64,000 nt of DNA from Nemertoderma westbladi. Its lineage: Eukaryota > Animalia > Xenacoelomorpha. The notes beneath the pieces were generated by a model. That model made no database searches. It was not told the origin of the DNA and was given only the letters and a program-made list of their open reading frames with translations. A program made the position numbers and the translations under genes. The DNA is taken from assembly GCA_032718475.1 (NCBI GenBank), contig JAUCBJ010001864.1, forward strand, positions 62,001 through 126,000, in the 5' to 3' direction. Each line of letters begins with the position of its first letter. Position 1 is the stretch's first letter. Below are positions 3,290-59,190 of this stretch, in pieces.

Positions 3290-3632
3290 GTCGTATCCAC
3301 GTAGACTACGCTGAAGCGAGAAACGACCAAGCGGAATGGGAGATGATGCATCGACAACAACGCGAGATGGAGGAGGCACTGCGGCCCCCCTCGCCTCCTC
3401 GGATGGGGGGCTACAGCGACCGGGAGGCTGTCGATGTGTGCGACCGACTAAAGTCGGAGGAGACCTTCCCGGAAGCGGTCCGCTACCTCATACACTGGCT
3501 GGAGAAGGGCGAAGTCAATCACTTCACCAACGCCAGGTTCTACTCCATGATCCAATCGGCTGCCAGCCAGGCGAGACGGATAGTGGAGGCCAAGGAGGGG
3601 TTGTGTCGGGATCTGGATGAGATCAAACAGAG
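3290..3632 (+). CDS. ENOX: ENOX (ecto-NOX disulfide-thiol exchanger 1/2-like) internal coding exon
   Basis: tttacAG acceptor and GTaggc donor; translates GRIHVDYAEARND..LRPPSPP..HWLEKGEVN..FYSMIQSA, matching the ENOX GRLHVDFAQARDD/RPPSPP/WIERGEVN/FYSMIQSAN motifs. Upstream RRM exons are outside the window. Confidence 0.92.
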
Positions 3633-5767: not shown

Positions 5768-6270
5768 GTGAGTGATTTAGTCTTATAATCTACAGTTTAG
5801 TATTCTAGAAAGTAATACATCACGATCTAAATTTGTTTTGGTAGGGATCTATTAGATCCCGTGTGAATAAACACTGGTAGGGAGGGGGTTTCCAGTATTT
5901 TGTATCAGTTTACCACTTAGTTTGCAGTTTGTCTTTGTATTTGAAAGGTTTCAATTCCGGTTTTCTTCTTTATATTTTATTTTTTTGTGAATTTAAATGG
6001 CCATAATGAAATGCGTTAATGATGGTTGATGCATAATATTATAAATATAATTAATTTATAATTATTATAATTAATATAATCAATATCGTTAATCGTTAAT
6101 TATTAATATAATTTTAGAATAATATTCTCGCAATAAACTTAATTATATTTATAATTATTTAATTTATTTAATGGCCGTGTAAAGCGGGGTAATTTCAATT
6201 GTAGTGACCAAGTATATTTTACCATATCATATAAAGATACCTTAACGTAACGTAATAACATCCTTGGGAG

Positions 6271-18200: not shown

Positions 18201-19657
18201 ATCGTGGCAATATAGGCGGGGATTGGGTTCGACTTTATGTGACATAATCGTAGCGATATAGGCGGGGATTTGGTTCGACATTATGTGACATAATCGTGGC
18301 GATATAGGCGGGGATTGGGTTCGACTTTATGTGACATAATCGTGACGATATAGGCGGGGATTGGGTTCGTCTTTATGTGACATAATCGTGGCGATATAGG
18401 CGGGGATTGGGTTCGACTTTATGTGACATAATCGTGGCGATATAGGCGGGGATTTGGTTCGACTTTATGTGACATAATCGTGGCAATATAGGCGGGGATT
18501 GGGTTCGACTTTATGTGACATAATCGTAGCGATATAGGCGGGGATTTGGTTCGACATTATGTGACATAATCGTGGCGATATAGGCGGGGATTGGGTTCGT
18601 CTTTATGTGACATAATCGTGTCGATATAGGTGGGGATTGGGTTCGACTTTAGGCGACATAATCGTGGCAATATAGGCGGGGATTGGGTTCGACTTTATGT
18701 GACATAATCGTAGCGATATAGGCGGGGATTGTGTTCGACTTTATGTGACATAATCGTGTCGATATAGGCGGGGATTGGGTTCGTCTTTATGTGACATAAT
18801 CGTGGCGATATAGGCGGGGATTGGGTTCGACTTTATGTGACATAATCGTGTCGATATAGGCGGGGATTGGGTTCGTCTTTATGTGACATAATCGTGTCGA
18901 TATAGGTGGGGATTGGGTTCGACTTTAGGCGACATAATCGTGGCAATATAGGCGGGGATTGGGTTCGACTTTATGTGACATAATCGTAGCGATATAGGCG
19001 GGGATTTGGTTCGACATTATGTGACATAATCGTGGCGATATAGGCGGGGATTGGGTTCGACTTTATGTGACATAATCGTGACGATATAGGCGGGGATTGG
19101 GTTCGTCTCTATGTGACATAATCGTGGCGATATAGGCGGGGATTGGGTTCGACTTTATGTGACATAATCGTGGCGATATAGGCGGGGATTTGGTTCGACT
19201 TTATGTGACATAATCGTGGCGATATAGGCGGGGATTTGGTTCGACATTATGTGACATAATCGTGGCGATATAGGCGGGGATTGGGTTCGACTTTATGTGA
19301 CATAATCGTGACGATATAGGCGGGATTGGGTTCGACTTTAGGCGACATAATCGTGGCAATATAGGCGGGGATTGGGTTCGACTTTATGTGACATAATCGT
19401 AGCGATATAGGCGGGGATTGTGTTCGACTTTATGTGACATAATCGTGTCGATATAGGCGGGGATTGGGTTCGTCTTTATGTGACATAATCGTGGCGATAT
19501 AGGCGGGGATTGGGTTCGACTTTATGTGACATAATCGTGGCGATATAGGCGGGGATTTGGTTCGACTTTATGTGACATAATCGTGGCGATATAGGCGGGG
19601 ATTGGTTCGACTTTATGCGACATAATCGTGACGATATAGGCGGGGATTGGGTTCGAA
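6271..19657. repeat. 46-bp tandem satellite (about 290 copies, 13.4 kb) filling an ENOX intron
   Basis: Unit GACTTTATGTGACATAATCGTGGCGATATAGGCGGGGATTGGGTTC with 46-bp period; variant units form higher-order blocks. Confidence 0.98.
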
Positions 19658-29900: not shown

Positions 29901-30640
29901 ATTAGCAAGTTTTATTGGCTCCGGGAATGGGTGTAAAATGCGGATTCAAGTTAATTACCATTTTTTAATGGATCCGGGACGGGGTGTAAAACGCGGATTC
30001 AAGTTATAATTACCAAGTTTTATTGGATCCGGGAAGGGGTGTAAAACGCGGATTCTAGTTAATTAGCAAGTTTTATTGGCTCCGGGAATGGGTGTAAAAT
30101 GCGGATTCATGTTAATTACCAAGTTTTATAGGATCCGGGAAGGGGTGTGAAACGCGGATTTTAGTTAATTACAAAGTTTTATTGGATCCGGGAAGGGGTG
30201 TGAAACGCGGATTCATGTTAATTACCAAGTTTTATAGGATCCGGGAATGGGTGTGAAACGCGGATTTTAGTTAATTACAAAGTTTTATTGGATCCGGGAA
30301 GGGGTGTGAAACGCGGATTCATGTTAATTACCAAGTTTTATTGGCTCCGGGAATGGGTGTGAAACGCGGATTCATGTTAATTTACCAAGTTTTATTGGAT
30401 CCGGGAAGGGGTGTGAAACGCGGATTTTAGTTAATTACAAAGTTTTATTGGATCCGGGAAGGGGTGTGAAATGCGGATTCATGTTAATTACCAAGTTTTA
30501 TAGGATCCGGGAAGGGGTGTGAAACGCGGATTTTAGTTAATTACAAGGTTTTATTGGATCCGGGAAGGGGTGTAAAACGCGGATTCAAGTTAATTTACCA
30601 AGTTTTATAGGATCCGGGAAGGGGTGTAAAACGCGGATTC

Positions 30641-32230
30641 ATGTTAATTACCAAGTTTTTACTATCAACTGAAAATAATCCACAACTACCAACCATCCCC
30701 GAACAGCCAGATAACGACTTAGACAAACCAATTGATCCCGCTGAAATCACGGAAGCGGTTTACAGTCAAAAGCCAAATAAAGCAGCTGGTCCGGACGGTA
30801 TCACCGGTGAAGCCTTGAAGTATGGTTTTGGTCACCTGCTTCCGTTTTTACTGACATTGTTTAGTGTTTGTTTCGCAACTGCTGCTTGCCCTGCAACCTG
30901 GCTAAAATCATACCTAATTATGCTCTATAAGGGTAAGGGAAGTAAATTATCCCCGGACTGTTACCGTGGAATAGCGCTACTATCATGTTTGTTTAAAGTA
31001 TATACTTCGATATTATTTACACGCTTATATGAATTTGCAGAACGCCGAGGTCTACTACCAGATGCGCAACACGGTTACAGAAAATCACGTTCGACGATCG
31101 ACGCTGTTAAAAGTCTATATACCCGCATCAATTTTGCCCTTGAACCTAAGGGTGGCCATTTATACTGCGTATTTGTTGATTTTCGAAAATGTTTCGACTC
31201 GATAAACCGAGAGATTCTCTGCAGGAAATTATCGAAACTCGGAGTAAGTCGAAAGTTTATTATCGCTATCTGGTCTATGATCGCTATCAACTACATATAT
31301 ATCTGTGTTGGAGTTCACATTCTGGAGCCTATTACTCAAACAATTGGAGTTGTACAAGGCGATAAACTGTCTCCTTTACTTTTTAGTCTTTTTGTATCAG
31401 ACCTACCAGCCTATCTCATATTCGCATCAATTTGGATCATAATGTATGCTGATGATCTAGTCATATCAGGTGACTCTATCGCGGAGGTTCAAGCTAGTCT
31501 AGACAAACTCTCAGAATATTGTGAAGTAAATGGAATCCAGGTCAATATTGCGAAGACAAAGGTGGTTAAGTTCCGGAAGGGGGGGAGATTATCGAGGACT
31601 GACATTCTAGAATATAACGGGCAGAAATTGGAATTTCAAAGCTCCTTTCAATATTTAGGAGTTACTCTCTCAACGAAAAATGGATCCAGAGGACACTACG
31701 ATCATCTATACTCGAAAGGACTCTCCAGTTGTGTTGTAATTGCAACAAAGGTAAACCTACACATCGTTTCGCTAGAATCCGCCCAACGTTTATGGCAGTC
31801 TATTGTCCTTCCATCGACCACTTATGGCTGCAACGTCTTCACTGCAAATGGTGACCTAACGCAACTGGATCATGTTAAACGTGTCCGCGGTTTTTACTGG
31901 AAACTCTGGTGTGGAATAAGCAAGTTTGCCTCCACCACAGCCATCCTAAGTGCCATAGACAACCCGGCTAACTCAGATCCAAACATGACAGGTCTCACAG
32001 GTTTCCGACGCCGCGTGGCAGCGCAGCTATTATCAAACGGTTGCCACCACCGCCTATGTACGAAACTCAATTGCTGGAGACCCACGGAAGACTGCACCTG
32101 TTGGGTGTGTGGCTCCCTGGCGGCAAACACAGACCACTACAAACTATGTACGCGCATACCTCAGTGCAGTTCACACCTAAAGACAGCAATTTGGCTGATG
32201 ACGACAGATGCTGCAACACTAACTATTTAA
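30641..32230 (+). CDS. Non-LTR reverse transcriptase with C-terminal Cys/His cluster (first 6 codons are satellite-derived)
   Basis: KAAGPDGI, YRGIALL, QHGYR, FVDFRKCFDSI, GVVQGDKLSPLLF, MYADD, FQYLG; C-terminal CHHRLC..C..CTCWVC..H..C. Confidence 0.88.
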   Translation: MLITKFLLSTENNPQLPTIPEQPDNDLDKPIDPAEITEAVYSQKPNKAAGPDGITGEALKYGFGHLLPFLLTLFSVCFATAACPATWLKSYLIMLYKGKGSKLSPDCYRGIALLSCLFKVYTSILFTRLYEFAERRGLLPDAQHGYRKSRSTIDAVKSLYTRINFALEPKGGHLYCVFVDFRKCFDSINREILCRKLSKLGVSRKFIIAIWSMIAINYIYICVGVHILEPITQTIGVVQGDKLSPLLFSLFVSDLPAYLIFASIWIIMYADDLVISGDSIAEVQASLDKLSEYCEVNGIQVNIAKTKVVKFRKGGRLSRTDILEYNGQKLEFQSSFQYLGVTLSTKNGSRGHYDHLYSKGLSSCVVIATKVNLHIVSLESAQRLWQSIVLPSTTYGCNVFTANGDLTQLDHVKRVRGFYWKLWCGISKFASTTAILSAIDNPANSDPNMTGLTGFRRRVAAQLLSNGCHHRLCTKLNCWRPTEDCTCWVCGSLAANTDHYKLCTRIPQCSSHLKTAIWLMTTDAATLTI

Positions 32231-41580: not shown

Positions 41581-41871
41581 TCGTGGCTCGTTCCACAGTA
41601 TATTAATTTAATACAGTTCCAATTTAATAATTTATTTAATATAGTTCCATCTAACAACTTTTGTTATTGGGTTATTTAATACGCATGACCATTCAGTTTG
41701 ATAAAACATTACTTTTGTTACATTATGTTTAAATTAACAGCGTTCTGGTGAATTACTCGTAACGCTGCAAAGTTGCAACGTTTTGCAGCGTTGCGGCCTA
41801 TAGGACGGAACGCTGCAAAGTAATCAATGACATGGAAACAATTTCAATTAACGTATTCCAGAATGTATTAT

Positions 41872-44123
41872 TGATGAATTATTTCACTATAAGATAGCAT
41901 TTGTAGTTTAACTTTAACGTAAAAACTTTCGAAAATCCGACGTATTTTGATTGAGTTACAGTAATGTAATATGCCTATTCATATTTGTACACATAAAACC
42001 CCTAGGTACTCTCGTGGCGTAGTGGTCAGATGGTTAAGGCGTTGGTTACATTACATAGGTTACGAGTTCGAATCCCAGTCGGGAAATTTGTATTTTGGGG
42101 CCATTTATTTTCGTTTGGTGCTAATTGGTAGGCCAATGAGAAGCGTACAGCGTAGCGAATGATGAGCCAGGCCAATCATAGGGCATAAATTATCTTATTG
42201 CTCAAATGTGAGGCAGTGGAAAATTCTGTTAGGATTCCATGTCCCAGATTAGTGTAAGGGCCGGACTGCGTTGAACGATGAGCTGGGCCAATCATAGGGC
42301 ACGAAGCACTTCATTGCTCAATTGTGAAGCTGTGGAAAATTCTGTTTAGTTTCCATGTGCAATTTCTAGTATAAAAAGGCCGGTTTGCCTTCGGTTATCA
42401 CCTTCTTTGTAAAACTCTTATTTTGTAAAATTAGTTTATTCGGTTTCTTGTTGAAACTTTATTTGATAAATCCTTTTGTAAAACTGTAAATATACTGCAA
42501 TTTCCTGACATGTTTTCTTTTGGTCCGACTTCGGGACAGCCGAACACCAGGGAGATGGCAGCCTAGATCGTTAGGCCGTAAGCAACGCAGGGAAGGGATG
42601 TCCACAACACGCTAGCGCCCACATTGGATCGACCGCGCACCCCCTTTGCCCCTTCGAAATACTCCACTTGCTATGCAGCGCCCGCTTTGTGAGAAGGTAA
42701 GACTTTGTTCGACGCCCTTGCCCGCCGTAAGACCTATAGATCAGGGTAAGCGTGACATCGTACTGGACGCCGCAAATTTAGGATCAAATAATTATATCCA
42801 GACACCCCCCCTTTGTCAAGTCCTACGAATCCCTGGGTTAACCTGTACTTCCTACAGGTGCGAACTATTGCCATTCGTCAGTACGCGAGTACATATTAGG
42901 TACGGACAGCACATGTTCCATAATTTAGTGATTCATAGCACTGACTGTTTGGTACCGGTTCGCTTTGTAGAACGTACATTAGTACCCCCCCCCCCCCCCC
43001 CTCTGTCTGGAGTTAGCTATTTGATCAGGCAAGGAGCATTTCTGCTACCGGCACACTGCTTGGCCTAGGGAGGTTTATTAATATCCTACCGCGCCTTGCC
43101 ACGTACTGATAGGTATTGCTGCTAACTACCGCAGCAACAAAGTTCTAGAATTAAATTAGTATACCAGATCAGCTAACGTACGGTAGCGATTAACCCCTAT
43201 TCTTATCTTACAACCAGAATCTGGTATTAGTGCCGATCACGGGTGTAGTTACTAACACTGTGGTTGCCCATTGGGTTGTGGATAGGAAGGAGAGAGCTTT
43301 GACGTCATTTGTGAGTATAAAGTTCTACAAACGCGACTAGTTTATTTTAGTAGCTAGCGCACGGTATCATTTAGTCAGAAAATCACTAAAACCTAGTAAA
43401 AGGAATTACACGAAATTGTTTTATTTGTAACACACCCACACACACACGCCCTAAAACATATTGCCCTTAAAGTTCTACTAGCTATAGCGTACTATACATT
43501 ACGTTAGGTGGAAATTATCTGTATTTGTAAAATTAGGATCTGATTTAGTTGCGGCAAGATAAGGAGTATTTCACTTTCGTTATTAAACTGTTGTTTGTCT
43601 GGACAACGGTATTGTTACATTTAGGCCTGACCTTTTAGACTGATTTCGTACAGGGGGATCAGTTATTGTTACATTTAGGCACGACCTTTAGGCTGATTTC
43701 GACAGGGATGATCAGCATTGTTACACTAGGTCTGTTAACCACCTAGTTCGTATATAACCCATATAAATCACACCGCGGCAAGTTACTGTATTTAGGACTG
43801 TCAGTGATAGTTAGGATTCGCTGCGTGGGGATTGTTTTCCCGTGAGTTTGGTCTGTTACTGTAACTGTACATCTGCCTCACCGGTTAGAGGACAGGTATC
43901 CTTCTGTCTAGTACGTAGGCATTAGACCCGCTCACGTACATAGAATAGATACAAGGCTCTGTTCCTCGCCAGTAGTCGTTTGTGTACTATATCTGTTTGT
44001 TTAGATATCCTGGACTGGGATTTGTTGTCAGATACTGTACAAGCCCGTATACATTACTAGAGTCTCATAGTAAGATACATCGTTACTAGGATCTGGTAAG
44101 CGGTATACTACTGGACCCTTACA
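41872..44123 (+). repeat. 5' LTR (2252 bp)
   Basis: Starts TGATGAATT and ends CCCTTACA; three CCAAT boxes and TATAAAA at 42370; TGACGTCA at 43300 followed by TATAAAA at about 43317. Confidence 0.95.
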
Positions 44124-45117
44124 GTAGGAAGTACTATATAAATTAGTGTATAGTATTGTTAGATCTGTACGCTTTGTAGTGCGTGCGCACTACAATAGTA
44201 GGAAGTATATTAGACAAATTCTGAAATTAGCGTATAGTATAGTTTAGAATTGTTAGCTATTGAAAGTAGGAGATATTTAAAATTTAAGGTTAGTAAATTT
44301 AGTAATTTAGAACGTCCCCTGCTTCAGTAGGCTTTTAGGGTAGCTAGTACTTTCGTATTTAATATTTGACTAGCTAACAGTTAGTTTGTAGCACTTTGTT
44401 TTACGCCGTGTGTGTGCGGTGTTACTTTTCGGTACTTGAAAAGGTACATAGGGTTTAAAGACCAATTTGTATCGGTACCTAGGAAGATTTTTCGTAAGCG
44501 TAGAAGTAAAACTCTCACCTTCGACCTTTTCAGGACTCAAGGACTCATTTCTGGACCGCTTCGAGGATTAGACCGCTTTTCGCAAAGTTTGGGAGACAAT
44601 AAATTCGTCCGCGCCGCCGAAAAACGGAAAGACCCACGTCCGGTTTGTATTTGGGAATTTGTACGACTGGAAGATCAAAGGAACGTAAGTTTTACGACTC
44701 GCGTCGTTCAAACTTAAGAAAGCACAGTAGTACTCAAAATTTGTGGGTTTCACTGTCTATTAGTAGTGTTGTTGGTACTTATTTTCCCGTTAGACGTTGC
44801 TGTTTGGCCTATTGTTTATACTTGTTGATCTATATTTTGTTAACGTATACCGTTATCTCACTTATTCGTACAAATTTAGCCGGTAGGCTAGATTACTACT
44901 TATTTTATTATATACTTTGTTAGTTTATTTGTACCGGTTAGGATATATATATGATATATATATATATCAAGGTAAGTTTGACATTTGTACATTTCGACAT
45001 TTTGACATTTCGACATTCTGACTTGTTGATTTATTTGTACCGGTTAGGTAAGTTCGACACTTCAACATTCAGACACTTTGACATTTTATTACCCGTACTT
45101 GACGTATATAATAAGAC

Positions 45118-48100
45118 ATGAGTGACACACCCCATTCGACGAGATACCCACCTACCGACTATGACTCGTGCGACCCGGACAGATCGACAGTAGACGAACC
45201 GAGAAGGAGAACCCGAGATTCCACCGATGTCACACCGCTTGCGTCGCCGGTACCCCGAACGGAAATACCGGAAGCCGCAACGCGTGGCGACAGCAGGATC
45301 GAAGATTTCCTTACCGTCCCGCAGACTAGATCGCGGGAACCGGACATGGTAAGTTCGACTGGAAGCCAGGAGAACGTTATTAGAAGTATAGGAGGACACA
45401 TGGCCCAGATTACTCGGAACCTCGGAGAAGGTTTTCGCGTTTTACGCGAGTTAACCGCCCCGATGTCGAGATACGAGTTCTACACCTTACAGGTAAGGAT
45501 AGAAAGTAGGGTACATGCCTCCGTAGATAAACTTAAAGGTTTGCACGAACTTGCAGAGTTGCGTGGCGACAACTTTACTCAGGTAAAGATAGTAGATAAA
45601 TTGGTAAGTGCGAGAGAAAGCCTTATCCAGTTTAAGTCGGTAATAAGCTTGGCTCAACAGGAGCAGTTCGACCAACTGCTAGGTGAGTCAGTTTCGGACG
45701 CGTTGTTACAACCCGAAGAGGAAGAAGAACTCTACTGCCTGGACGGAAGGTTGGAAACGCTGACCAATTTTCTTCGTAGATGCGGCGTACCGATCGACGA
45801 ACCGGAAGTCGAACCGCGAGGGACGACGGAAGTTCTCACTACGGAAGGCTCGCGAGCCTACCAACATCCACCGCTGGATAGATCGTTTGTTAGCGTACGG
45901 AGCGACGTTGGCAACGTTGGCGACGTTAGTAGAACAGCGTCTGGAATTACTCGACAACAACAGGAGGTTGCACGCCGACAACAAGTCGCCGAGGAAGAAG
46001 CGCGACACCAGATGGCACAGATCGCCATCGAAGGAGAGAAACAACGTAGAGAAGACGAGGCAAGAATTGCACAACTCAAGGCGCAAGCTGAATTCGAAGC
46101 ATCAGAAATGCGCAGACTGGAGGAGGACTTAGCGCGAGAAGCGGCAGCCGACGAGTTAGCACGGCAGAAAGCAGCATCCGACGTTCGTGCCAAGTTGGAG
46201 GCGCGGCAAATAAACGCTCGATTAGCTATACAGGAAGCGGAATTAGCGGCACAACAACAGGACGCAGATCGACGCGAAAGGGAGATGCAACTACAGTTCG
46301 AATTGAATCGTAGATCGCGCGAGACAGCGAACGCGCAAGCGGACCTCGAACTCGACGCGAGAGATAGATCTATGAGATCGCGAACTGGACACGACTTGTC
46401 TGCCCTGGATCGTATGGAAGCTCGATATCGCGGAATACAGAAGCGGATCGAGGAAGGAAGCGTGGGAGCGATAGATCGAGGAGAGGAGTTCGTCGAGGAT
46501 TACTGCAAACGTTTTCCCCAAGTTATTCCTATGCTCAAACCCACGACTCCGATAAAACCGGTCTTCGTTACGAAACCTAAGGAAATAACGCCTGTGCGTT
46601 CGACGCAAGGCAACAGGTTTGTTGTGACGGAAATACCGCAACCTAGGGCGACTTCATCGCCAATTTTAGCAGGTAACATAACTAGTCCACCTACAGTAAG
46701 TCGTAGTCTACTTGTAGGAAGAGAGGAACCTGCGTTTATGACCATTAAACAGGTGAGTAAACCATTACAAGTTAAACCTGTGACGTGCTGTGCAAATCCA
46801 GTTATTTACAGACCGACTACGAAACCCGACTATTTCACTCGACCGTTGACACAATGTTCGACGCAACCTACGACTTCGTGGAAGGCTTGCGAGCCTACCG
46901 AACTACGGAGGAGGATGGAGGTGGGTAGTACCCACGGGATCGGACAACGTATAGCGAGACCTACGACTTCGTGGAAGGCTTGCGAGCCTACCGAACAACG
47001 GAGAGCCGTAGATTCCGGACCGCAACGGACGAAAACGAGAGTAATACGCCGGACACGAACCCGCCAACCACCTTATCCGGACGACAGCGATTCATCTAGT
47101 GACTCGGAGTCGACGGAACGGGAAATATTCCGTACTGGAGCGGCGGAAGATTGCAAACGAGAGGAGAGATCGACGAACCCCTATATCGACAATCCTCCAC
47201 GAGAAACACCCCAACAGAAACCCACGTTGAAACCAGCGGAAACGATCAGCGCTAAACAGTTCACCGAGATGACGGACAGAATAGCTCAACTCGAAGAACG
47301 ACTCGAAGCGCAACCGTCGGATCGATCACGAACCAGCGTGGAGTTGGAACAACCTAGACAACATCGACCACCGAGGAGAGAACAGGAGACTAGACGGACT
47401 CCGACACATCGAAAAGAAGATCCCGTTAATAATTCCTACCGACGAACAACGCGCGGAAGGGAGCGACTGGACGACGCCGCCGAACAGGGACGCGGACAGT
47501 TGGATTTGGTTAGCGAGATTGCGAAATTCGCGGCTAGACACGGATTACCGGCACAGCAACCGCCGAAGTTCTCTGGCAACGCGAAACACTGGCGCACACT
47601 GGTAGACTACGTAGAGTCCCAGATCGCTAAGTGTGCTTTCACCTCGACGGAGAAGTTTAACTACTTGCTCCAAGTCCTGTCTGGTGAGCCGAAACGATTA
47701 GCGGAAACCTTTATTGGTGTTCCCGATGCCTTTGAATTGGCGTACGACCGTTTGTATTCGATTTACGGCGGTAATGTCGCCATGGCTAAATCCATTATAG
47801 AAGACCTCTGCAGAGGAGGCAACATTTCGAGACCGATCGACCTTTTACGACTCGCGGACGAAATAAAGAACGCTATAGGGACTTTACGGTCCATTGGACA
47901 ACTCGAGTACGCTAACGCACCGACGGTTCTCATTCGAATAATCGGTCGACTTCATCATCGACTACGACGAGAATGGCGATGCATCGAGTACCAGCGCGAA
48001 GAGGCCGGAGGGTTATTAAAACTCACCGATGTCTATCAACTTATTTCACGGGAGGCCGTGATTGAGACTCGATCGAACTATACCGATCACCATATCGCGG

Positions 48101-51100
48101 CGGAAGGGATAACTGTTTCTGCGCCGAATCGGACTAAACCGTTTCCGACGAACGCGAAAGCCGTTACTTACGCCACCCCTACTGAGACTTCTAAAGTTCT
48201 GACGCCTATCGGCACCACGCAGCCACGACAACAGTTGCCGGCGGACTTTGTGGGATGCTCATACTGCGAGCGGAACGGCAGAAACCATAGCGGACATAAA
48301 CTACGTGGATGTCGCGCTTTTAAAGAGTTAGGGATCGAGGAAAGGAGACTCCAAATCCGATCTCTAGATTCCTGTTGGAGATGTATGAAGCCAGGACACG
48401 TCCGGAAGGATTGCCCGAGCGACGATACATGTTCTTTGTGTGGACGTAACCATGACGCGTTGCTTCACACAACCAGTCATACTCCGACCCGACGCTTTCG
48501 ACGAGAGCATCCCGATAAAGCGGCTAGATGCGACGCGCTTTATAAGGAGCGTGCGCCGCGCGAGATCCGTACCTTTTATACCGACTGTATGGATCAGTCA
48601 GGATCATCGGACGAGGACGAGGAGGAAGACGACACTTTCTACGTGCATGCAGGTGAGGAACAGCCATCGATAACGCTCCTCACACAGAACCAATTGAAAG
48701 GGTTTAGCGTGATTCCTATAAAGATTACCGGAACCCGAGGGAGCAAGCGTATATACGCCATCTTAGACTCTGCGTCATCGCATAGCTATGTCGACGAACA
48801 AGTAGCCGACGTAGTTACGGACTTGAGTCAAGGTAAGACTGCTCAGTATACTGTAAGCAGCATGTATGGTAAGAGAGCGATTCCTGTGACGAGAGTAAAA
48901 CTAACCTTAGACACTCTTCTTTCCAAAGCGGAACACAGCAAGGAGGAGCGCTCATTACTTCCGGTAAGAAATTTGACCTTTGCAGCTACGAAGGACTTTA
49001 GTAACTTGCTCGGCCCTGTGCCAGAGCAATCACCGGAAGATCGTAAGTATTTCCGACACCTTGGAATACCGGAATGTCCTGTCAATTATCGTTCCATTGC
49101 GATGTTAATTGGGACAGACCAGTTTAACTTACATCAGGTATGGGAGACACGCCCATCTGTTATTACAGCGGGCAACCCCTACGCATGTAGAACTCCCATA
49201 GGTTGGTATACTAGAGCACCAATACGTTCACTAGAGGTAAGTGACCAGGAGGACGACGTTTTGAGTATGTGTAGTTTATTGACTAACACGATAGATAATT
49301 CTCCTTCACACTCCCGTGGTCCAATTGTACGGACGGCACTACGACAGACTCGCGTCACTAACACAGACGCCACCGATACTGACGTAACCGATCTGGACAC
49401 GACCATACGGACCTCTGACTTACAACTACTTGCAGTAGACCAGGTTGTATTGACTACTGAAGACCTGAGGGTTGTTGCCGTGGATGACTCGATGAACGAA
49501 GATTTTGGAAGGCTTGCGAGCCTACCGAAAAATCCGAAGGTCATTGACCCCACCCACCAGGCTTCGACACCGGTCGTTGATCTTGGAAGGCTTGCGAGCC
49601 TACCGATAGATCAAGAGGTTGTCAAACCGCCGCACGACAATTCGACGCCGACTAGTGACACCGGAAGGCTTGCGAGCCTACCAGACACATTGACACTAGC
49701 CACCGCAGCGGACGAAGACGTGGACGAGGACCATGGCGCAGTGCAAGCAGCGCTTGACCGACTGCTGACTGAACGGACCATTCAATGGTTGGAACAGGAC
49801 TCAGCAGAACCCGGTAGTTACGAGACCGCTATGTCAGAACAGGAAAAACGGTCATTAAATATTATGAGAGATACCATTCGCCAGACCGCGAATGGCCACT
49901 ATGAGGTTGGTATGTTGTGGCGCGATGGACAACCTAAGCTCGTTAACAATTACCCGCTTGCTTTGAGGCGACTCAAATCAATAAGGCAGCGATTGTTGCG
50001 AGACGAGACGGCCCATATGCAATACAATGCACAACTTCAGACGTATCTCCAAAGGGGATACGCCATTAGGATGTTAAATCCTGAGGTAACCACAGACCAG
50101 ACATATTACCTGCCACATCATTTTGTTCGACACCCGGACAAACCTGGCAAGGTGCGTGTAGTCAACGACTGCGCTGCACTTTACCAAGGGATGTCTATGA
50201 ATAGCGAACTGATGGACGGGCCGAATATGAATAATTACCTCATGGGAGTCCTAATGCGTTTTAGACAACGCAAAGTGGCTTTCACCTGTGACGTAGAGGC
50301 CATGTTTCACCAGGTTAAGGCTTTGGAGCGGGACAGGGACAGTTTGAGGTTTCTTTGGTATCCGGACGGAAACTTACAACTTCCGCCAGAAACTTACCAA
50401 ATGCAGGTAAGAGTATTCGGAGCCAGGGACAGCCCCAACTGCACCATGTACGCCTTAAAGCAGACAGCATTAGACAGACGAGACCAATTTGACCCAGAAG
50501 TAGTTCGGACCGTGGAACGAGACTTCTACGTGGATGACGGCCTCAAGAGTTGTGACACCTTGGAGCGCGCTACAACCGTAGCACACCAACTCCAGGATTG
50601 TCTCGCTGAGGGCGGATTTCACCTGACGAAGTTCGCTTCCAACGAACCCGAACTGGTGAACTCATTTGACCCGATGGATCGTAGCGGAGGTGACTTGGAC
50701 TTAGACTTAGAACCTCTGCCGACGACCAAAGTATTAGGACTTAGTTGGGACCCTAACACCGACAATTTTAGGGTACGTGTAAGGTCCAACGACCAGACTA
50801 GACCTCTCACAAAGAGGACTTGCTTATCGACCATGAGTCGATTGTATGACCCATTGTGTTTCATTAGTCCAGTGATCCTACATGCCAGGATCATACTCCG
50901 CAGCATTTGGCAAGCCGGACTGGAATGGGACGATCCCATCCCAGAAAAGTTAGCTGAGCGATGGAGGGACTGGGAAGCCCAACTGACGTTCCTACAAGAC
51001 TATACCATACCAAGGGTATACCATACGCGGCTAGTTTACCCGGAATTCGTTTTTTATCGGCACATTTTTTGGATTAGGAGCCAGTGCGAAATCACGCGAA

Positions 51101-51114
51101 CCCGAAATCATTAG
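45118..51114 (+). CDS. BEL/Pao Gag-protease-RT polyprotein, truncated before the RNase H catalytic motifs and integrase
   Basis: Coiled-coil N-terminus, PPKFSG..W capsid region, Cys/His knuckles (CWRCMKPGHVRKDC, CSLCGRNH), protease LDSAS, YYLPHH, DVEAMFHQV, LRFLW, FYVDD, KVLGLSW, LYDPL, WDDPIP; homology ends at IPRVY (about 51022). Confidence 0.93.
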   Translation: MSDTPHSTRYPPTDYDSCDPDRSTVDEPRRRTRDSTDVTPLASPVPRTEIPEAATRGDSRIEDFLTVPQTRSREPDMVSSTGSQENVIRSIGGHMAQITRNLGEGFRVLRELTAPMSRYEFYTLQVRIESRVHASVDKLKGLHELAELRGDNFTQVKIVDKLVSARESLIQFKSVISLAQQEQFDQLLGESVSDALLQPEEEEELYCLDGRLETLTNFLRRCGVPIDEPEVEPRGTTEVLTTEGSRAYQHPPLDRSFVSVRSDVGNVGDVSRTASGITRQQQEVARRQQVAEEEARHQMAQIAIEGEKQRREDEARIAQLKAQAEFEASEMRRLEEDLAREAAADELARQKAASDVRAKLEARQINARLAIQEAELAAQQQDADRREREMQLQFELNRRSRETANAQADLELDARDRSMRSRTGHDLSALDRMEARYRGIQKRIEEGSVGAIDRGEEFVEDYCKRFPQVIPMLKPTTPIKPVFVTKPKEITPVRSTQGNRFVVTEIPQPRATSSPILAGNITSPPTVSRSLLVGREEPAFMTIKQVSKPLQVKPVTCCANPVIYRPTTKPDYFTRPLTQCSTQPTTSWKACEPTELRRRMEVGSTHGIGQRIARPTTSWKACEPTEQRRAVDSGPQRTKTRVIRRTRTRQPPYPDDSDSSSDSESTEREIFRTGAAEDCKREERSTNPYIDNPPRETPQQKPTLKPAETISAKQFTEMTDRIAQLEERLEAQPSDRSRTSVELEQPRQHRPPRREQETRRTPTHRKEDPVNNSYRRTTRGRERLDDAAEQGRGQLDLVSEIAKFAARHGLPAQQPPKFSGNAKHWRTLVDYVESQIAKCAFTSTEKFNYLLQVLSGEPKRLAETFIGVPDAFELAYDRLYSIYGGNVAMAKSIIEDLCRGGNISRPIDLLRLADEIKNAIGTLRSIGQLEYANAPTVLIRIIGRLHHRLRREWRCIEYQREEAGGLLKLTDVYQLISREAVIETRSNYTDHHIAAEGITVSAPNRTKPFPTNAKAVTYATPTETSKVLTPIGTTQPRQQLPADFVGCSYCERNGRNHSGHKLRGCRAFKELGIEERRLQIRSLDSCWRCMKPGHVRKDCPSDDTCSLCGRNHDALLHTTSHTPTRRFRREHPDKAARCDALYKERAPREIRTFYTDCMDQSGSSDEDEEEDDTFYVHAGEEQPSITLLTQNQLKGFSVIPIKITGTRGSKRIYAILDSASSHSYVDEQVADVVTDLSQGKTAQYTVSSMYGKRAIPVTRVKLTLDTLLSKAEHSKEERSLLPVRNLTFAATKDFSNLLGPVPEQSPEDRKYFRHLGIPECPVNYRSIAMLIGTDQFNLHQVWETRPSVITAGNPYACRTPIGWYTRAPIRSLEVSDQEDDVLSMCSLLTNTIDNSPSHSRGPIVRTALRQTRVTNTDATDTDVTDLDTTIRTSDLQLLAVDQVVLTTEDLRVVAVDDSMNEDFGRLASLPKNPKVIDPTHQASTPVVDLGRLASLPIDQEVVKPPHDNSTPTSDTGRLASLPDTLTLATAADEDVDEDHGAVQAALDRLLTERTIQWLEQDSAEPGSYETAMSEQEKRSLNIMRDTIRQTANGHYEVGMLWRDGQPKLVNNYPLALRRLKSIRQRLLRDETAHMQYNAQLQTYLQRGYAIRMLNPEVTTDQTYYLPHHFVRHPDKPGKVRVVNDCAALYQGMSMNSELMDGPNMNNYLMGVLMRFRQRKVAFTCDVEAMFHQVKALERDRDSLRFLWYPDGNLQLPPETYQMQVRVFGARDSPNCTMYALKQTALDRRDQFDPEVVRTVERDFYVDDGLKSCDTLERATTVAHQLQDCLAEGGFHLTKFASNEPELVNSFDPMDRSGGDLDLDLEPLPTTKVLGLSWDPNTDNFRVRVRSNDQTRPLTKRTCLSTMSRLYDPLCFISPVILHARIILRSIWQAGLEWDDPIPEKLAERWRDWEAQLTFLQDYTIPRVYHTRLVYPEFVFYRHIFWIRSQCEITRTRNH

Positions 51115-51248
51115 GCAAAATGGGTTGGGGTTTAGAGCAGAGTTGAGCCAAAAGCCAACAAACTCTGGAGTCACCTCCCATCTAACCTCTATTTTGTGCT
51201 TCATCTAGTAGAAACGTAACGATATGTAACCGCATATATTCGTATACG

Positions 51249-54200
51249 ATGGCGGAGAAGATGTATAAAGAGTTACGTCAAGGGTTTACGCAAGAACAGG
51301 AGCACCAGGCGCCATTCAATCGTTATGGAGCTAAAAACTTTAGTGTGTTTGGAGTGGAGAGTATGGCTAGGAGTACGGCCAAGCTCGCTAAATCCAAGGC
51401 GGACCCGAATGTTAGCGACAGCGGTTGGACGCATACAACAAAAGAACGGAGGAATTACGCGCGGAATACAATGCGTTATATCCCTACGATGCGTTATGCG
51501 ACGCTAGCGACATTTGCGAGGATCCAGACACCGAAATACGCCGATTGTATCATACGCTGCAATATTTGACGGTAAACAAACCTTTACCTGCAGCTAGAGA
51601 CGAATTTGAAGGAATGCATCTTTATAGACGCGCTCGAGGAGCGGATCCAGAGACCAAGGACGCGTTTTCCGTATACAAACTGTTTTATAAATGTGGAGCG
51701 TGTATGCGCGAGCAAGACAACGCGATTCCTATGCGGTTGAACTCGGAGAACCCCGAGCCGATATTAGCGCGATGTTCACACCACCAAAGTCTACGTTACC
51801 AAGAAGGCGGATACCCTTTGACAAATCCGTATCATTCTTTTAAGATGAGTGGACCGAACGCGGGTGAGATCGTTATTTACGAACCTAAATTAGTCGAACC
51901 AGACGTCTACAGCATGGTAGTGGACGAGTCTAACAAGTCGACTCAAGAGAAACGGGAAGCTTTGAGCCTCTACAGGGCGTACAAGGCGTACGAGAAAGGC
52001 GAGATCGAGGAGTTCGGCGGAAGGCTCGCGAGCCTACCATTCTATTGGATATCCCACGATCAAACCGAACCCAAGGAGATGACACCCGAGCTCTTCGATA
52101 GTATCACCTTTGCTCAGCGTTTGTCGCAGAGACTACAGATACCTCACGTTGAGATGACGCGAGAACCTCAGCCCCATTCTACTGGAGCGATAGTATCGGT
52201 TGCGAGACCAACTAGTTTTCCTATTAGTATACCGACCCGGAAGGAGACAACTTACGAGATCCCTATAGTTGAACACCCGGAGATCATCTCGAACCTGGAT
52301 TTCCTCCCATCGGTCACCTTCGGTGATGTGTTAGAATCAACCGAGTTGCGTAAAGTAATAGTTCAAAAAATCGTACGCAACGTGCCTCCACATATCACGG
52401 ACTTTAAGGAAGTGGATCGCGCGGGGACGGATATCGCACCTTGTATCTTGCGAGGATATCTGACGAAAACGATTCGATTATGGATCGGAGTTGGGACGTT
52501 TGAGACCGACACCGATATCGCGACCAATTGGACTGGTAAACCTATTAGTTTCGATGATGAAAAGTCGATCGGGAGAATTTGGAACCCTACCGATGATTTA
52601 CTCGACGATTGGGACGTGACTAGCCGATCTCTGAAAGAGAATGGATATATGTTTTACGATAATGAAGGAGGAAGCCATCAGCAAAGCCTCACTTCAAAGA
52701 CGATACAGATTAGAGCACCAGATGGCGTGTTACATGTCTTCAGCCGACAGAGGAGTGATAGGAAGATGCCTATGCCGGAAGGAACGACGCAAAGACACGC
52801 GATGATAAAACGGATAGTTAAATCCATGGACCTGGCTTGTAGCATAGAAGCTAGGATGTTGCCAAAGGCCGTGCGAGACGTTGTGTTGGATAAGAGCATC
52901 GTCAAGATCGGATCCGGTGTACGGGATGACCTCATTAGCGACTTTGCAGGGATGCCCACGGAAGAGGACCGATTGCCTACGCCATACGTGGATACTAGAC
53001 CATTGTTGCTTTGGGCTATTGAGCAAGGATACTTTAGAGAGTATAACATGCTAAAAACTGGGACGGGTTATATCTCATATCTGATGTTCAGTTGGGATTA
53101 CAAGGAGAGTAAGAGGAACAAATACACGGACGTATACGGAGAGGGAGATACCCCCGGCGTAAACGAGTTCGAGTCACAGTTGAAGTGGCGAGGTTGCGTG
53201 TATTGGGCGATTACTTCACCTCCGCGGATAATCTTGCAATACTATTTAGCGATAGAATCTTCGGTTAACGTTTGTTTCATCGCGGACGTAGTATCCAGAA
53301 CCTTAAAGCGACACCCGTTATGTCTTGGCGAAGGACATACCTTTTACGATGGAGGAAGGACGCATACCGATGTATTCCGACGATTTCTCCAACCCTTTTA
53401 TAACACCGATGCGCACTGCGAAGTTTTCACGCGAGCGGGACTTAGCGTTTTCAGGGACGTCTATCTCACTCACGCGGGAAGTCTAGTTGACAGACCGTCG
53501 ATGTTAACGTTAGTACCCTATGACGGGGAACGCCACGCGGAATTCGAACGCCCGGAAGGATCCTGGAAGGCTCGCGAGCCTACCGCCCATCATGACGATG
53601 TGGATCCGACCGAGTTGGCGCTAATAGACGAACCGTTACGGCAACTCATAGAAATAGAAGAGAACCTTCCAAGGAAGACGCGAACTGAGATACGCGAGTT
53701 AGAGAAAAGCGATGCCATGGTTTGTGTACAACCTACGGAGACGAACATACCGACTGACCCGGATGATGAGAATTATCACGTGGACGGTAGCGCTCGCCCC
53801 ATCGGAGACCTCATCTATGAGCGAGTTTGGTATCCTGCCAACACTATTTGTGGCAGATGTGGAGCAACTGGCCATCACGCAAAGAAGTGCGGAGCGAAGC
53901 ACATATCTCTACCGGATTTAGTATGCAACTGGTGCGGGGATCAACGTTCGCACACTTTCTACACTTGCTGGCGTTTCGTGGCGCAGTGTACTTATTGTAA
54001 TATTAAGGGCCATAGGGCATCTGAATGTCAACTTAGAGACGTCCCCTATGAGCACATGTCAGTTAAAATCGTTCGACAATTATTCGACCATTGGGAGGAT
54101 CTAGCAGACGAGCATGTATCGACGCAGCGACGCCGCTTCCCTATGAGAGCACATTTGGGATTTTGGGCCGTAAACCCTCTCATAATGTCAAAGGAAGGAT

Positions 54201-55003
54201 ATGTATCGGCTATGCCTCAGTACGATGAATTGTTGGAGGTATTGGATATATTGCCGTTGGACAGTGGATTCAAAGTTGTGCGGGACTATTTCTTACAAGT
54301 GCACCCGGACAACAAGAATACTTAGAACTTTCAAACTGTGGTGAACAAGATTACCGCCGGAGAATTCGATAAACTGCGAGTTGAACAGCGGAATCGAGGA
54401 GCCTGGCATTCGATAGCTTGGGCATACCGGAGCGCATTTTATCACAAACGCGTAACCTCGTGCATTCTGGACGAGACCGACGTTTTGCGTGAGACTGGCT
54501 TCAAGGCCACGCCGTTAGCGGAGAAGACGCGTCACCCACAGGATGATCAGCAATTTCGTATACTCAAAGCCCAGAAGGCCGGACAAGAGATTAAGAAGAT
54601 AGTGAATGTCGCCGAGAGGACGACATCGAAATCGCAAATCCGGATGACTCGGGGCACGGTTTCCCTTGCTAGAGAACCACACGGAGGGACAGGATACGCT
54701 TTGACTGAACCCATTAGGATTCAAACGACGTCAGAGAGCGAGGTGTCAACGGACGGAACAGTCCTACCCTTTCGACTTCCTCCTAGCGTTGTAGAAACTC
54801 GATCCGATGTTAAGTCGACAGTTGGAATCGGACGAGGATTTAGAGGATTGAGCGCACGACGGATGTGCGAAACTCCCGTCGTCCCCTTTCCTAGCGTTTT
54901 GGAACCACCGACGACTCGACGCCGAAGTCCGAGCCCAGTTCGACCTCGACCACCCCCCAATCGCACTAGAGGACGTGGACGAGCCCGCTCAGCGAAGGAA
55001 TAG
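51249..55003 (+). CDS. Cargo ORF: DEDDy (WRN/EXD-like) 3'-5' exonuclease, three CCHC knuckles and a basic tail; main open segment 51416-54325, probable frameshift near 51413, in-frame TAG at 54323
   Basis: Exo I FYDNE and IQIRAPDGVLHVF; Exo II LPKAVRDVVLDKSIVKIGSGVRDDL; VDT; Exo III-like QYYLAIE; CGRCGATGHHAKKC, CNWCGDQRSHTFYTC, CTYCNIKGHRASEC. ORF 54338-55003 is in the same frame after a single TAG. Confidence 0.7.
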
Positions 55004-55662
55004 GAAGCGAGTGGAAGGAAGGCTTGCGAGCCTACCGATTTGGATATTATATTTGGATATTATATTTGGATGTTATATTTGGATATTATATTTGGATATT
55101 TTATTTGGATATTTATATTGGACATTATGTTTGAACGTTGGGTTTGGAAGAACGAGATATGGAAAGGAAGGCTTGCGAGCCTACCGTTAGCAATTAGTGC
55201 TCAGGAGAAGATATCCAGACCAGCAGGACGAACTTTTAAGATCGTCAGGAGGACTCTTTAAGACTTATTTGAAGGATTTTAGCGCATTATGTTTATTTTA
55301 TATTTAGACTGATTTAATTTGGTGAATTTATTATGTATATTTACAATATATAAAGATTTATCGAAAGAGTTTGATTTATTTGTTTGATTTGTTTGATTTA
55401 TTTGTTCTGATTTGTTTAATTTGCTTACCTTGATAACCGAAAGCCTTTTTTTTGTATTTTAGGCACTAAAGTTAATTAGTAAATTTGTATTTGTATGTAC
55501 GATCGATTGTATTTACGCCGTATCTGCAATATTAAATATGCAATAATTAGATAGTGATTATATTTTATATTTTAGGCCCTACCAGTAAATTTAGAAATAG
55601 TTTGTAAATATTTTATATTTCGATTGGTGAAAACAGTCTTACTTACTGTTTTCATGGAGCGG

Positions 55663-57936
55663 TGATGAATTATTTCACTATAAGATAGCATTTGTAGTTT
55701 AACTTTAACGTAAAAACTTTCGAAAATCCGACGTATTTTGATTGAGTTACAGTAATGTAATATGCCTATTCATATTTGTACACATAAAACCCCTAGGTAC
55801 TCTCGTGGCGTAGTGGTCAGATGGTTAAGGCGTTGGTTACATTACATAGGTTACGAGTTCGAATCCCAGTCGGGAAATTTGTATTTTGGGGCCATTTATT
55901 TTCGTTTGGTGCTAATTGGTAGGCCAATGAGAAGCGTACAGCGTAGCGAATGATGAGCCAGGCCAATCATAGGGCATAAATTATCTTATTGCTCAAATGT
56001 GAGGTAGTGGAAAATTCTGTTAGGATTCCATGTCCCAGATTGTAAGGGCCGGACTGCGTTGAACGATGAGCTGGGCCAATCATAGGGCACGAAGCACTTC
56101 ATTGCTCAATTGTGAAGCTGTGGAAAATTCTGTTTAGTTTCCATGTGCAATTTCTAGTATAAAAAGGCCGGTTTGCCTTCGGTTATCACCTTATATTATG
56201 TCACTTCTTACCACTTTGTAAAACTCTTATTTTGTAAAATTAGTTTATTCGGTTTCTTGTTGAAACTTTATTTGATAAATCCTTTTGTAAAACTGTAAAT
56301 ATACTGCAATTTCCTGACATGTTTTCTTTTGGTCCGACTTCGGGACAGCCGAACACCAGGGAGATGGCAGCCTAGATCGTTAGGCCGTAAGCAACGCAGG
56401 GAAGGGATGTCCACAACACGCTAGCGCCCACATTGGATCGACCGCGCACCCCCTTTGCCCCTTCGAAATACTCCACTTGCTATGCAGCGCCCGCTTTGTG
56501 AGAAGGTAAGACTTTGTTCGACGCCCTTGCCCGCCGTAAGACCTATAGATCAGGGTAAGCGTGACATCGTACTGGACGCCGCAAATTTAGGATCAAATAA
56601 TTATATCCAGACACCCCCCCTTTGTCAAGTCCTACGAATCCCTGGGTTAACCTGTACTTCCTACAGGTGCGAACTATTGCCATTCGTCAGTACGCGAGTA
56701 CATATTAGGTACGGACAGCACATGTTCCATAATTTAGTGATTCATAGCACTGACTGTTTGGTACCGGTTCGCTTTGTAGAACGTACATTAGTACCCCCCC
56801 CCCCCCCCCCCCCCTCTGTCTGGAGTTAGCTATTTGATCAGGCAAGGAGCATTTCTGCTACCGGCACACTGCTTGGCCTAGGGAGGTTTATTAATATCCT
56901 ACCGCGCCTTGCCACGTACTGATAGGTATTGCTGCTAACTACCGCAGCAACAAAGTTCTAGAATTAAATTAGTATACCAGATCAGCTAACGTACGGTAGC
57001 GATTAAACCCTATTCTTATCTTACAACCAGAATCTGGTATTAGTGCCGATCACGGGTGTAGTTACTAACACTGTGGTTGCCCATTGGGTTGTGGATAGGA
57101 AGGAGAGAGCTTTGACGTCATTTGTGAGTATAAAGTTCTACAAACGCGACTAGTTTATTTTAGTAGCTAGCGCACGGTATCATTTAGTCAGAAAATCACT
57201 AAAACCTAGTAAAAGGAATTACACGAAATTGTTTTATTTGTAACACACCCACACACACACGCCCTAAAACATATTGCCCTTAAAGTTCTACTAGCTATAG
57301 CGTACTATACATTACGTTAGGTGGAAATTATCTGTATTTGTAAAATTAGGATCTGATTTAGTTGCGGCAAGATAAGGAGTATTTCACTTTCGTTATTAAA
57401 CTGTTGTTTGTCTGGACAACGGTATTGTTACATTTAGGCCTGACCTTTTAGACTGATTTCGTACAGGGGGATCAGTTATTGTTACATTTAGGCACGACCT
57501 TTAGGCTGATTTCGACAGGGATGATCAGCATTGTTACACTAGGTCTGTTAACCACCTAGTTCGTATATAACCCATATAAATCACACCGCGGCAAGTTACT
57601 GTATTTAGGACTGTCAGTGATAGTTAGGATTCGCTGCGCGGGGATTGTTTTCCCGTGAGTTTGGTCTGTTACTGTAACTGTACATCTGCCTCACCGGTTA
57701 GAGGACAGGTATCCTTCTGTCTAGTACGTAGGCATTAGACCCGCTCACGTACATAGAATAGATACAAGGCTCTGTTCCTCGCCAGTAGTCGTTTGTGTAC
57801 TATATCTGTTTGTTTAGATATCCTGGACTGGGATTTGTTGTCAGATACTGTACAAGCCCGTATACATTACTAGAGTCTCATAGTAAGATACATCGTTAGT
57901 AGGATCTGGTAAGCGGTATACTACTGGACCCTTACA
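55663..57936 (+). repeat. 3' LTR (2274 bp)
   Basis: Near-identical to the 5' LTR; preceded by a short purine-rich GGAGCGG and a 10-bp hairpin (55628-54); followed by the TSD ATTAT. Confidence 0.95.
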
Positions 57937-57941
57937 ATTAT

Positions 57942-59190
57942 TTCCATTTATGTTAATGAGTGCTGCTTTATTATCAAGTTTACAGTGACGGGACTAGCTA
58001 CAACTGAATGTAAATAATTGTTTAACGTGTACTGTAAAATCCATTATGGCGAAACGTCCACTAGAAGACACTAAAATGACCAAAGAAAATGGCTACAGTG
58101 TTCAGTAAAATTGAACGGACACAGACGGTGACTAAGTTTGCTTCAGTCGACTATATACGTAGTCCAGATGGATTAATGATTATCACATCCATATAGGAGA
58201 TAACTTCCAATAAACCATAATTAGATTTAAATGTATAATTAATAATGTGTACCTGTTAATCAATTTCACTTATATTTGATATAGTACATGATTAAAATGT
58301 ATAAAGGAGTATCCATAAAATGCTTTCATCACATACCGAACGCTGATAAGTTTAGATAATGTAACAAAATTACATACATCATTGCTTGCGAAGGTCACTT
58401 TTCAGCGTTAAAGACCCTTGTTTATTGATGTAAACCTCCCTCGCTGCGCTCGCTCGGTACATAAATAAACTCGGGTCATAATGCTGCAAAGTGCTACTTT
58501 GCACACAATGATGGACTGTAAATAGTTATTGTTACATTATGTCCACTTAACAGAGTTCTGCTGAATTACTCGTAACGCTGCAAAGTAATCAATAACCTGG
58601 AAAAACAACTTAAATTACCGTATTCCAGAATGTATTATTTCCATTTATATTAATGTGTGCTTCTTTATTCAATAAAGCAGCACGTTTTTGCATAATGCGT
58701 GCGTCCAGTTTGAAGTAACGGGACTAGCTACTGTATGTAAATAATTGTTTAATGTGTAAGACTTTTCATACGTCCTATAGAGAAGACATTTTAGAGAAAA
58801 TGAGCAAATAATGGCGACTGTGTTCAGAAAAACTGAACGGACACAGACGGTGACTCAGTGGACGACGGATCAAAGATTTAACACATCCATGCATGACATA
58901 ACAACAATAAACTTTAATTCGATATAAATGTTTAATTAATACTTTGTACCTGTTAATAAATTTCACTTATATTCGAAATAGTACATGATTAAAATGTTTA
59001 AATGAGCATCAATAAAATCCTTTCTTCACATACCGAACGCTGATAAGTTGACATAATGTAACAAAATTACATGTATGTAATTTATGTAAACCTCTCTCGC
59101 TGCGCTCGCTCGGTACATAAATAAACTCGGGTCATGACGCTGCAAAGTGCTACTTTACACACAATGATGTTAATACAGTAGTTATTCTGT
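57942..59190. repeat. Tandemly duplicated ~650-750-bp repeat; first copy (starting about 41710) is split by the LTR element, second copy 58525-59190 is intact
   Basis: Shared GAATTACTCGTAACGCTGCAAAG, CACAGACGGTGACT, CACATACCGAACGCTGATAAGTT, CTCGCTGCGCTCGCTCGGTACATAAATAAACTCGGGTC; second copy shows the empty site GAATGTATTAT-TTCCATTTA at about 58628. Confidence 0.8.

Follow-up and report, generated by a model that had tools for sequence, protein, structure and literature searches.

A 64,000-nt stretch of the genome of Nemertoderma westbladi (contig JAUCBJ010001864.1 of assembly GCA_032718475.1, positions 62,001 to 126,000 of the forward strand), referred to here as the window, contains a BEL/Pao long terminal repeat (LTR) retrotransposon of 16 kb at 41872-57936, and through this element one 20-nt word able to fold as a hairpin recurs ten times. 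Sequence comparisons support a constraint on the nucleotides of this motif beyond what the encoded proteins need, and three asymmetries, in the loop change it tolerates, in the pair that flanks it and in an excess of its 5' arm, favour a role in the sense RNA over one in DNA. Readings in which the motif acts as RNA are, taken together, probable. Among them, a repeated signal that would be bound by zinc knuckles encoded by the element, pair from copy to copy, and select and compact a long genome RNA is put first, if tentatively.

An initial annotation of the sequence had reported the ten copies, and an exact pattern match recovers all of them, on the + strand throughout, against a chance expectation of 0.01 matches per shuffled window:

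45843..45862, + strand: motif copy 1, loop base C; EGSRAY, Gag N-terminal region
46880..46899, + strand: motif copy 2, loop base T; WKACEPT, 93-nt tandem pair, Gag linker
46973..46992, + strand: motif copy 3, loop base T; WKACEPT, 93-nt tandem pair with copy 2
49507..49526, + strand: motif copy 4, loop base T; GRLASLP, 78-nt tandem triplet, protease-reverse transcriptase linker
49585..49604, + strand: motif copy 5, loop base T; GRLASLP, tandem triplet
49663..49682, + strand: motif copy 6, loop base T; GRLASLP, tandem triplet
52019..52038, + strand: motif copy 7, loop base C; GRLASLP, second open reading frame (ORF2), upstream of the exonuclease domain
53565..53584, + strand: motif copy 8, loop base C; WKAREPT, ORF2 linker between exonuclease and knuckles
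55017..55036, + strand: motif copy 9, loop base T; non-coding, 14 nt past the stop codon at 55001-55003
55166..55185, + strand: motif copy 10, loop base T; non-coding, with a 13-nt tandem array between copies 9 and 10

Within the window the word is confined to the element. A scan of both strands allowing 1-5 mismatches returned only the reverse reading of the same ten copies, and four matches with 6 mismatches all fall inside a repeat at 878-2757. Both LTRs are free of it, as had been claimed; the 5' LTR and 5' untranslated region (UTR) together (41872-45117) hold no copy, and all ten lie downstream. They span 9.3 kb of coding and 3' sequence, spaced roughly every 1-2.5 kb, in a count that covers this internally deleted copy of the element (see below) and leaves any motif in the deleted part uncounted. 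The ten copies amount to six independent sites, namely three singles, two tandem pairs and one tandem triplet, with cluster spacings of 93, 78 and 149 nt. A single base varies, the first position of the loop (C in three copies, T in seven): C is found at the three single sites (45843, 52019 and 53565) and T in all copies of the three tandem clusters. Each of the eight coding copies sits in a linker, clear of the conserved domains, and there the motif is read in three frames, as GRLASLP four times, WKACEPT twice, and WKAREPT and EGSRAY once each.

This spread over three frames and two non-coding sites, together with the behaviour of synonymous shuffles, leads us to reject an explanation of the motif at the protein level: each coding copy offers 6-8 synonymous sites, and not one of 1000 synonymous shuffles retains any motif copy. 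The proposal that conservation is at the nucleotide level is borne out by the tandem units, which agree at 20 of 20 motif bases as against 7-22 of 29 in their 29-nt flanks, while flanks of different clusters match at 26-27%. The six copies in ORF1 sit where 0-4 homologous proteins align, compared with about 120 over the reverse transcriptase (RT). Variation among contigs of the family points the same way for copies 4-6, the three of ten copies that this test covers. Over 49470-49720, two deep runs show 19 positions variable at 1% or more, of which one, the last base of copy 5 at about 1%, falls within the 60 motif bases (4.5-5.7 expected; p = 0.034 for the whole stretch and 0.008 with the ends trimmed), and all seven positions that reach at least 5% in at least one run are outside the motifs. 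Rows with insertions or deletions over copies 4-6 are absent among the 497 and 141 contigs aligned. Run X4 has no contig on this stretch, and two single contigs of run X3 that lie on the motif have flanks that, by eye, resemble the surroundings of copies 2 and 3 at about 22 of 30 and about 13 of 21 letters, a weak sign that diverged siblings retain it.

The fold given in the initial annotation is also the predicted fold of the isolated 20-mer (-7.6 kcal/mol, z-scores of -2.0 and -2.3). Within 60 nt of sequence, eight of the ten copies are predicted to keep the hairpin in the minimum-energy structure and nine in the centroid; once flanks of 100 nt are included, it is lost from four copies of the tandem clusters, since neighbouring copies are then predicted to pair together. 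Assignment of the loop to the stable YNMG/UNCG tetraloops stands in part. The model extra-stable loop, cUUCGg, is closed by a C-G pair, and U-closed YNMG-like loops are known as well. Both loops found here, CGCG and UGCG, fit the YNMG consensus as defined in PMC5633025, but the closing pair is U-A in 10 of 10 copies, not C-G. The centre of the motif is a perfect or near-perfect 14-bp palindrome, and a duplex between two copies is predicted at -34.9 and -30.7 kcal/mol against -7.6 for the monomer. By prediction only, its self-complementarity would let the hairpin of one RNA form a duplex with that of another, as a dimerisation signal has to.

If the palindrome invites a reading as DNA, what points to RNA? 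The change from C to U in the loop, the sole one seen, keeps the duplex of the sense RNA (-34.9 to -30.7 kcal/mol) but not that of the antisense RNA (-22.9 kcal/mol); its mirror change occurs in none of the ten copies, and the variable base retains pairing with G on the sense RNA only. Immediately outside the 20-mer, five copies have U.G as the flanking pair, three have C.A and two have A.G, and none has a Watson-Crick pair; this pattern corresponds to 1 in 120 arrangements, or 1 in 35 with the tandem duplicates collapsed; U.G and C.A wobbles are isosteric. GGAAG, the 5' arm of the hairpin, is in excess on the sense strand also outside the motif (39 occurrences in the ORFs against a mean of 26.2, with 2 of 2000 shuffles as high), and five lie in the 30 nt upstream of motif copies where 1.0 is expected. 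This arm fits NGNNG, the ligand recognised by the paired CCHC knuckles of Lin28 (PMC11011352), and the element encodes knuckles of its own, one in Gag and three in ORF2.

These features could be joined in a model patterned on the SL1 hairpin of Ty1, but multiplied and outside the leader. Ty1 RNA dimerises via a hairpin that turns into an extended duplex under the action of Gag (PMC6844567). In the sense RNA of the Nemertoderma element, each copy would fold into a stem of 5 bp that is extended, past an A.A mismatch, by two further pairs and closed off by one that is not Watson-Crick; through the self-complementary centre, two copies on the same or on separate RNAs could convert to a 14-bp duplex, and the GGAAG arm would be the ligand for paired CCHC knuckles. 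Either the Gag nucleocapsid or the exonuclease-knuckle protein of ORF2 would coat such sites every 1-2.5 kb, and the coated sites would select, link and compact a genome RNA of unusual length so that it can be packaged. Tandem duplication within tolerant linkers would supply new sites. The initial annotation had inferred packaging or dimerisation signals or sites for knuckle binding: nucleotide-level constraint and an RNA-type signature of the sense strand are both supported, and the proposed functions are plausible on these predictions.

Several observations weigh against such a signal. All seven stem pairs are invariant, so covariation is zero and the structure is a predicted one only; the antisense strand gives the same hairpin with equal energy; and the patterns of closing pair and GGAAG were spotted post hoc. 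A single orientation is also a property of the DNA motifs of VANC (PMC5735166), and the 5' UTR and LTR, where the dimer signals of Ty1 sit (PMC6844567), hold no copy. In the variation test, contigs pile up on the motif (to about twice the depth of the flanks at copy 4), and since these include contigs of other copies, the shares of motif variants are diluted and the deficit is inflated; taken alone, third codon positions give 0 of 18 against 8 of 49 (p = 0.097, not significant). Runs X3 and X4 contain a deletion form of the element that skips 51810-54873, and with it most of ORF2 and the seventh and eighth copies of the motif; individual copies are therefore dispensable. None of the 120 listed BEL/Pao polyproteins (at most 43% identity) carries an exact motif-derived peptide, and four one-mismatch matches among them look like chance. 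As judged from these comparisons, the motif is known from this one family.

The element that carries the motif, and the features that bear on its function, are as follows:

41872..44123, + strand: 5' LTR, 2252 nt, TG...CA, preceded by the target-site duplication ATTAT
42845..42855, + strand: candidate self-primer, an 11-nt LTR stretch within a predicted hairpin, exact complement of the first 11 nt after the 5' LTR
44124..44134, + strand: primer-binding position, complementary to 42845-42855; no TGG tRNA-type site
45118..51114, + strand: ORF1, gag-pol, with DUF1759, CCHC knuckle, protease-like region, RT (FYVDD) and the first half of Peptidase_A17
51249..55003, + strand: ORF2 region, with a DEDDy-like 3'-5' exonuclease (about 52640-53260) and three zinc knuckles (about 53849-54030)
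55663..57936, + strand: 3' LTR, 2274 nt, directly followed by ATTAT

Two LTRs with TG...CA ends and a 5-nt target-site duplication are present, as in BEL/Pao elements, and the insertion is recent, its LTRs being separated by no more than 4 substitutions and 3 indels. The set of DUF1759, knuckle, protease, RT and Peptidase_A17 in one ORF is that of a BEL/Pao gag-pol; profile matches are PF05380 (E = 3.6e-18) and PF03564 (E = 3.9e-9), with the knuckle and RT below cut-off. The 153 homologues of ORF1 include 120 listed ones that are all BEL/Pao-type polyproteins, of 43% identity or less. The RNase H and integrase that follow RT in BEL/Pao elements were not found, the domain search of ORF1 giving no integrase match, and the match to Peptidase_A17 (PF05380) ends at position 72 of 162. 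Contigs of the family that match up to 51021 continue past it into other sequence (19 loose ends in run X1, long contigs in X4 and X5), which argues that this copy is internally deleted near 51021. The family has many copies, with 21,084 (X1, perhaps the source sample) and 10,124 (X3) contigs aligned to 16.4 kb, summed contig depth not being taken as copy number.

Some further observations concern the element and its surroundings. Run X5, which bears another organism label and is possibly of RNA, has contigs 95-99% alike over much of the element at a depth of about 4 (a relative, transfer or contamination). The element is apparently inserted into another repeat family, with matching segments on both sides (41734-41871 and 57937-58700). 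Its LTR contains two 86-nt repeats with CCAAT boxes (42157-42358), upstream of a TATA box, and 21 nt of the 3' LTR just downstream of these repeats are missing from the 5' LTR. By eye, about 42005-42080 and the equivalent part of the 3' LTR look tRNA-like, with words resembling an A-box and a B-box, possibly a short interspersed element (SINE) head or an RNA polymerase III promoter carried in the LTR; neither ARAGORN (0 genes) nor Rfam made a call there. A 29-nt inverted repeat, 83% complementary, joins 43436-43464 in the LTR with 44391-44419 in the 5' UTR, a possible long-range RNA pairing. Both non-coding regions contain tandem arrays, of 13-nt units on the 3' side (55038-55130) and of 8-nt units on the 5' side (44970-45086), and they share a U-rich word of 12 nt (45026, 55371 and 55393). 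Elsewhere in the window lie a 46-nt satellite (about 6120-19300, about 280 copies, about 97% alike) and further G-skewed repeats at 1-3500 and 27000-31000.

The start of the internal region also departs from the usual arrangement. No TGG start, and by that criterion no tRNA-complementary primer site of the BEL/Pao kind, follows the 5' LTR. The first 11 nt instead complement a stretch of the LTR, present again in the 3' LTR at 56654-56664, a degree of complementarity reached by about 1 in 2280 sampled internal positions. This resembles the self-priming of Tf1 and Tj1 (PMC4600332) and makes the element a candidate for priming itself from its own LTR instead of from a tRNA. The candidate primer sits about 450 nt past the likely TATA-driven start (TATAAA at 42370), so self-priming may need an internal cleavage or another start. 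Among the papers listed by a literature search there was no BEL case of self-priming.

ORF2 is likely, though not firmly, a DEDDy-like exonuclease joined to three zinc knuckles. In this copy its frame is broken near 51415 and at 54323-54325, two places where contigs of the family differ. Among 1.84 billion representatives searched there were three matches; two distant relatives alone (P0121 and P0123) share the layout throughout, with exonuclease-like domain, linker, three zinc knuckles and conserved tail, and the third (P0122), a knuckle-only match, was left out of the alignment. In ORF2 and these two relatives acidic residues align as D-x-E, D and Y-x-x-x-E, which we take to be the Exo I, II and III motifs (Exo III as Y-x-x-x-E). 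ORF2 has no direct Pfam match, and its likeness to DNA_pol_A_exo1 is indirect, via P0121 (E = 1.4e-5) and P0123, which matches PF01612 at E = 6e-5. A profile of ORF2 gives a weak WRN exonuclease match (E = 0.47), and an Atlas search a weak PF01612 lead (score 0.90); a second Atlas search returned knuckle clusters only, all below 0.9. Word search and PDB sequence search gave no match to ORF2, a search with P0121 matched itself only, two structure models were of low confidence (pLDDT 30-31), and a fold search found no match. Extra DEDDy-like exonuclease ORFs after pol are known as ORF3 of the bdelloid elements Juno and Vesta, cargo whose function is unknown and activity not shown (PMC5408684). 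Here the host element is BEL/Pao and the cargo has three zinc knuckles added; the Juno/Vesta paper makes no mention of a hairpin, stem-loop or CCHC. A wider proposal, which we consider somewhat unlikely, would unite the motif, the cargo and the priming as a self-contained RNA addressing system, in which an invariant hairpin running through coding sequence is read by a captured exonuclease-zinc-knuckle protein in a self-priming element and serves as an exact-sequence packaging or transport code along the whole genome of the element.

The evidence at the RNA level fits equally well a signal for export, localisation or protection, with the ORF2 protein, by analogy, as a Rev/CERV-like or Egalitarian-like adaptor that would take unspliced RNA out of the nucleus or to the germline, or protect it against silencing by small RNAs. 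Several splice-donor-like words in the element would suit such a role, as would the exonuclease and three-knuckle layout that ORF2 shares with P0121 and P0123. Precedents exist in Cer1, which encodes its own export protein CERV (PMC10309623), and in Egalitarian, whose DEDDy exonuclease domain binds bulged stem-loops (10.1101/2025.08.03.668247). Yet the signals of Egalitarian are 40-65 nt long with little common sequence (10.1101/2025.08.03.668247), against an invariant 20-mer; ORF2 has no established likeness to CERV, and the CERV paper makes no mention of an exonuclease (PMC10309623). A role in export or transport would also leave the self-complementary centre unexplained, and it comes out as the nearest rival but fairly improbable.

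Could the motif instead be a site in double-stranded DNA? Its palindrome could seat a dimeric protein of the element or host that activates or unsilences the element, much like the VANC motifs of Arabidopsis VANDAL transposons. The likeness extends to family-specificity, one orientation and tandem spread, all seen within the window, and to an element-encoded accessory gene alongside (PMC5735166). But VANC motifs are 9-nt DNA sites, mainly non-coding, in a DNA transposon (PMC5735166), whereas the motif is a 20-nt hairpin-type word in a retroelement with 8 of 10 copies in ORFs and none in the LTR promoter. In the DNA, the tolerated change upsets the symmetry on one side only, the flanking pair is never symmetric, and the cargo domains are of RNA type (knuckles, DEDDy-like). 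CpG is undepleted in element and flanks (observed/expected 0.9-1.45), which argues against a methylation-removing role. A DNA site is accordingly rated unlikely.

A role in reverse transcription, in which the motif would pair with the self-priming hairpin or primer site or guide template switching, is less likely again. GGAAG recurs in the 11-nt sequence at the primer position and its complement stands in the loop of the hairpin that the LTR is predicted to form at 42840-42858, and family contigs show deletions near tandem copies. The common words are, however, only 5 nt long and were noticed post hoc, and the deletion of this copy near 51021 is not at a motif. Direct repeats favour deletions in reverse transcription, a risk that makes the repeats a cost rather than a benefit. 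The motif itself was considered as a tRNA primer site and rejected by inspection, as the preceding base varies and the complement shows no T-arm pattern.

Least probable is a tiny selfish or neutral insert of the REP/RPE kind, or a by-product of RT jumping, kept identical by recency or conversion: the copies do lie where homologues fail to align, and the reverse strand opens with a GTAG word before the hairpin, as REPs do, but the window shows one orientation, no decayed copies, no target duplication and none outside the element, the flanks of tandem units have diverged where the motifs have not, contigs over copies 4-6 lack indel rows, and 596 Gb of prokaryote genomes gave 2 single matches against 2.2 expected. 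Two single matches in metagenomes, on bacterial-looking contigs (L001 and L002), are attributed to chance. Viral contigs gave no match to the motif and no locus in scans for related BEL/Pao DNA, and the two Rfam matches, both weak and under the gathering score, lie away from the motif.

The repeated, knuckle-bound RNA signal can be set beside known systems. DNA uptake sequences of Neisseria are DNA signals on both strands, and the dispersed packaging signals of single-stranded RNA phages are degenerate, not exact; both are like the motif in being short words overprinted on coding sequence, in several frames and tolerant places. DIS and Psi of HIV-1 are dimerisation and packaging signals of a retrovirus. 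Signals of this kind, those of Ty1 included, come singly or as a few different elements close to the 5' end (PMC6844567), whereas here an invariant 20-mer stands ten times over 9.3 kb, with none in the 5' UTR or LTR. In position and number the motif fails the class of classical 5' dimerisation signals, though it may work similarly: PAL1-PAL2 of Ty1 SL1 is likewise a short self-complementary hairpin of the sense strand that passes into an extended duplex (PMC6844567; predicted here), with a knuckle-type ligand adjacent. Domain d of the enterovirus oriL, bound by 3C, also presents a YNMG loop on viral RNA, with UGCG a common variant, but as a single copy in the 5' UTR that tolerates many loops (PMC5633025), as opposed to ten copies in which only the first loop base varies. 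Among the papers listed by literature searches that reached few subscription journals, none describes an LTR retroelement whose ORFs carry one exact hairpin again and again. Within the literature searched, the motif would be a cis-acting retroelement signal in a layout so far unreported.

Outside the yeast elements Ty1 and Ty3, little is known of how LTR retrotransposons select their own RNA for packaging, and the DEDDy cargo ORFs of retroelements still await a function (PMC5408684). One element here holds a defined candidate ligand of 20-22 nt and two candidate readers, and because ligand and readers are co-encoded, both questions are testable with short RNAs and isolated domains. If the repeated RNA signal is real, it would mean that a signal repeated without change can be carried throughout the ORFs of a retroelement, in spite of the risk of deletion between direct repeats, and the family would offer a compact new protein-RNA pair.

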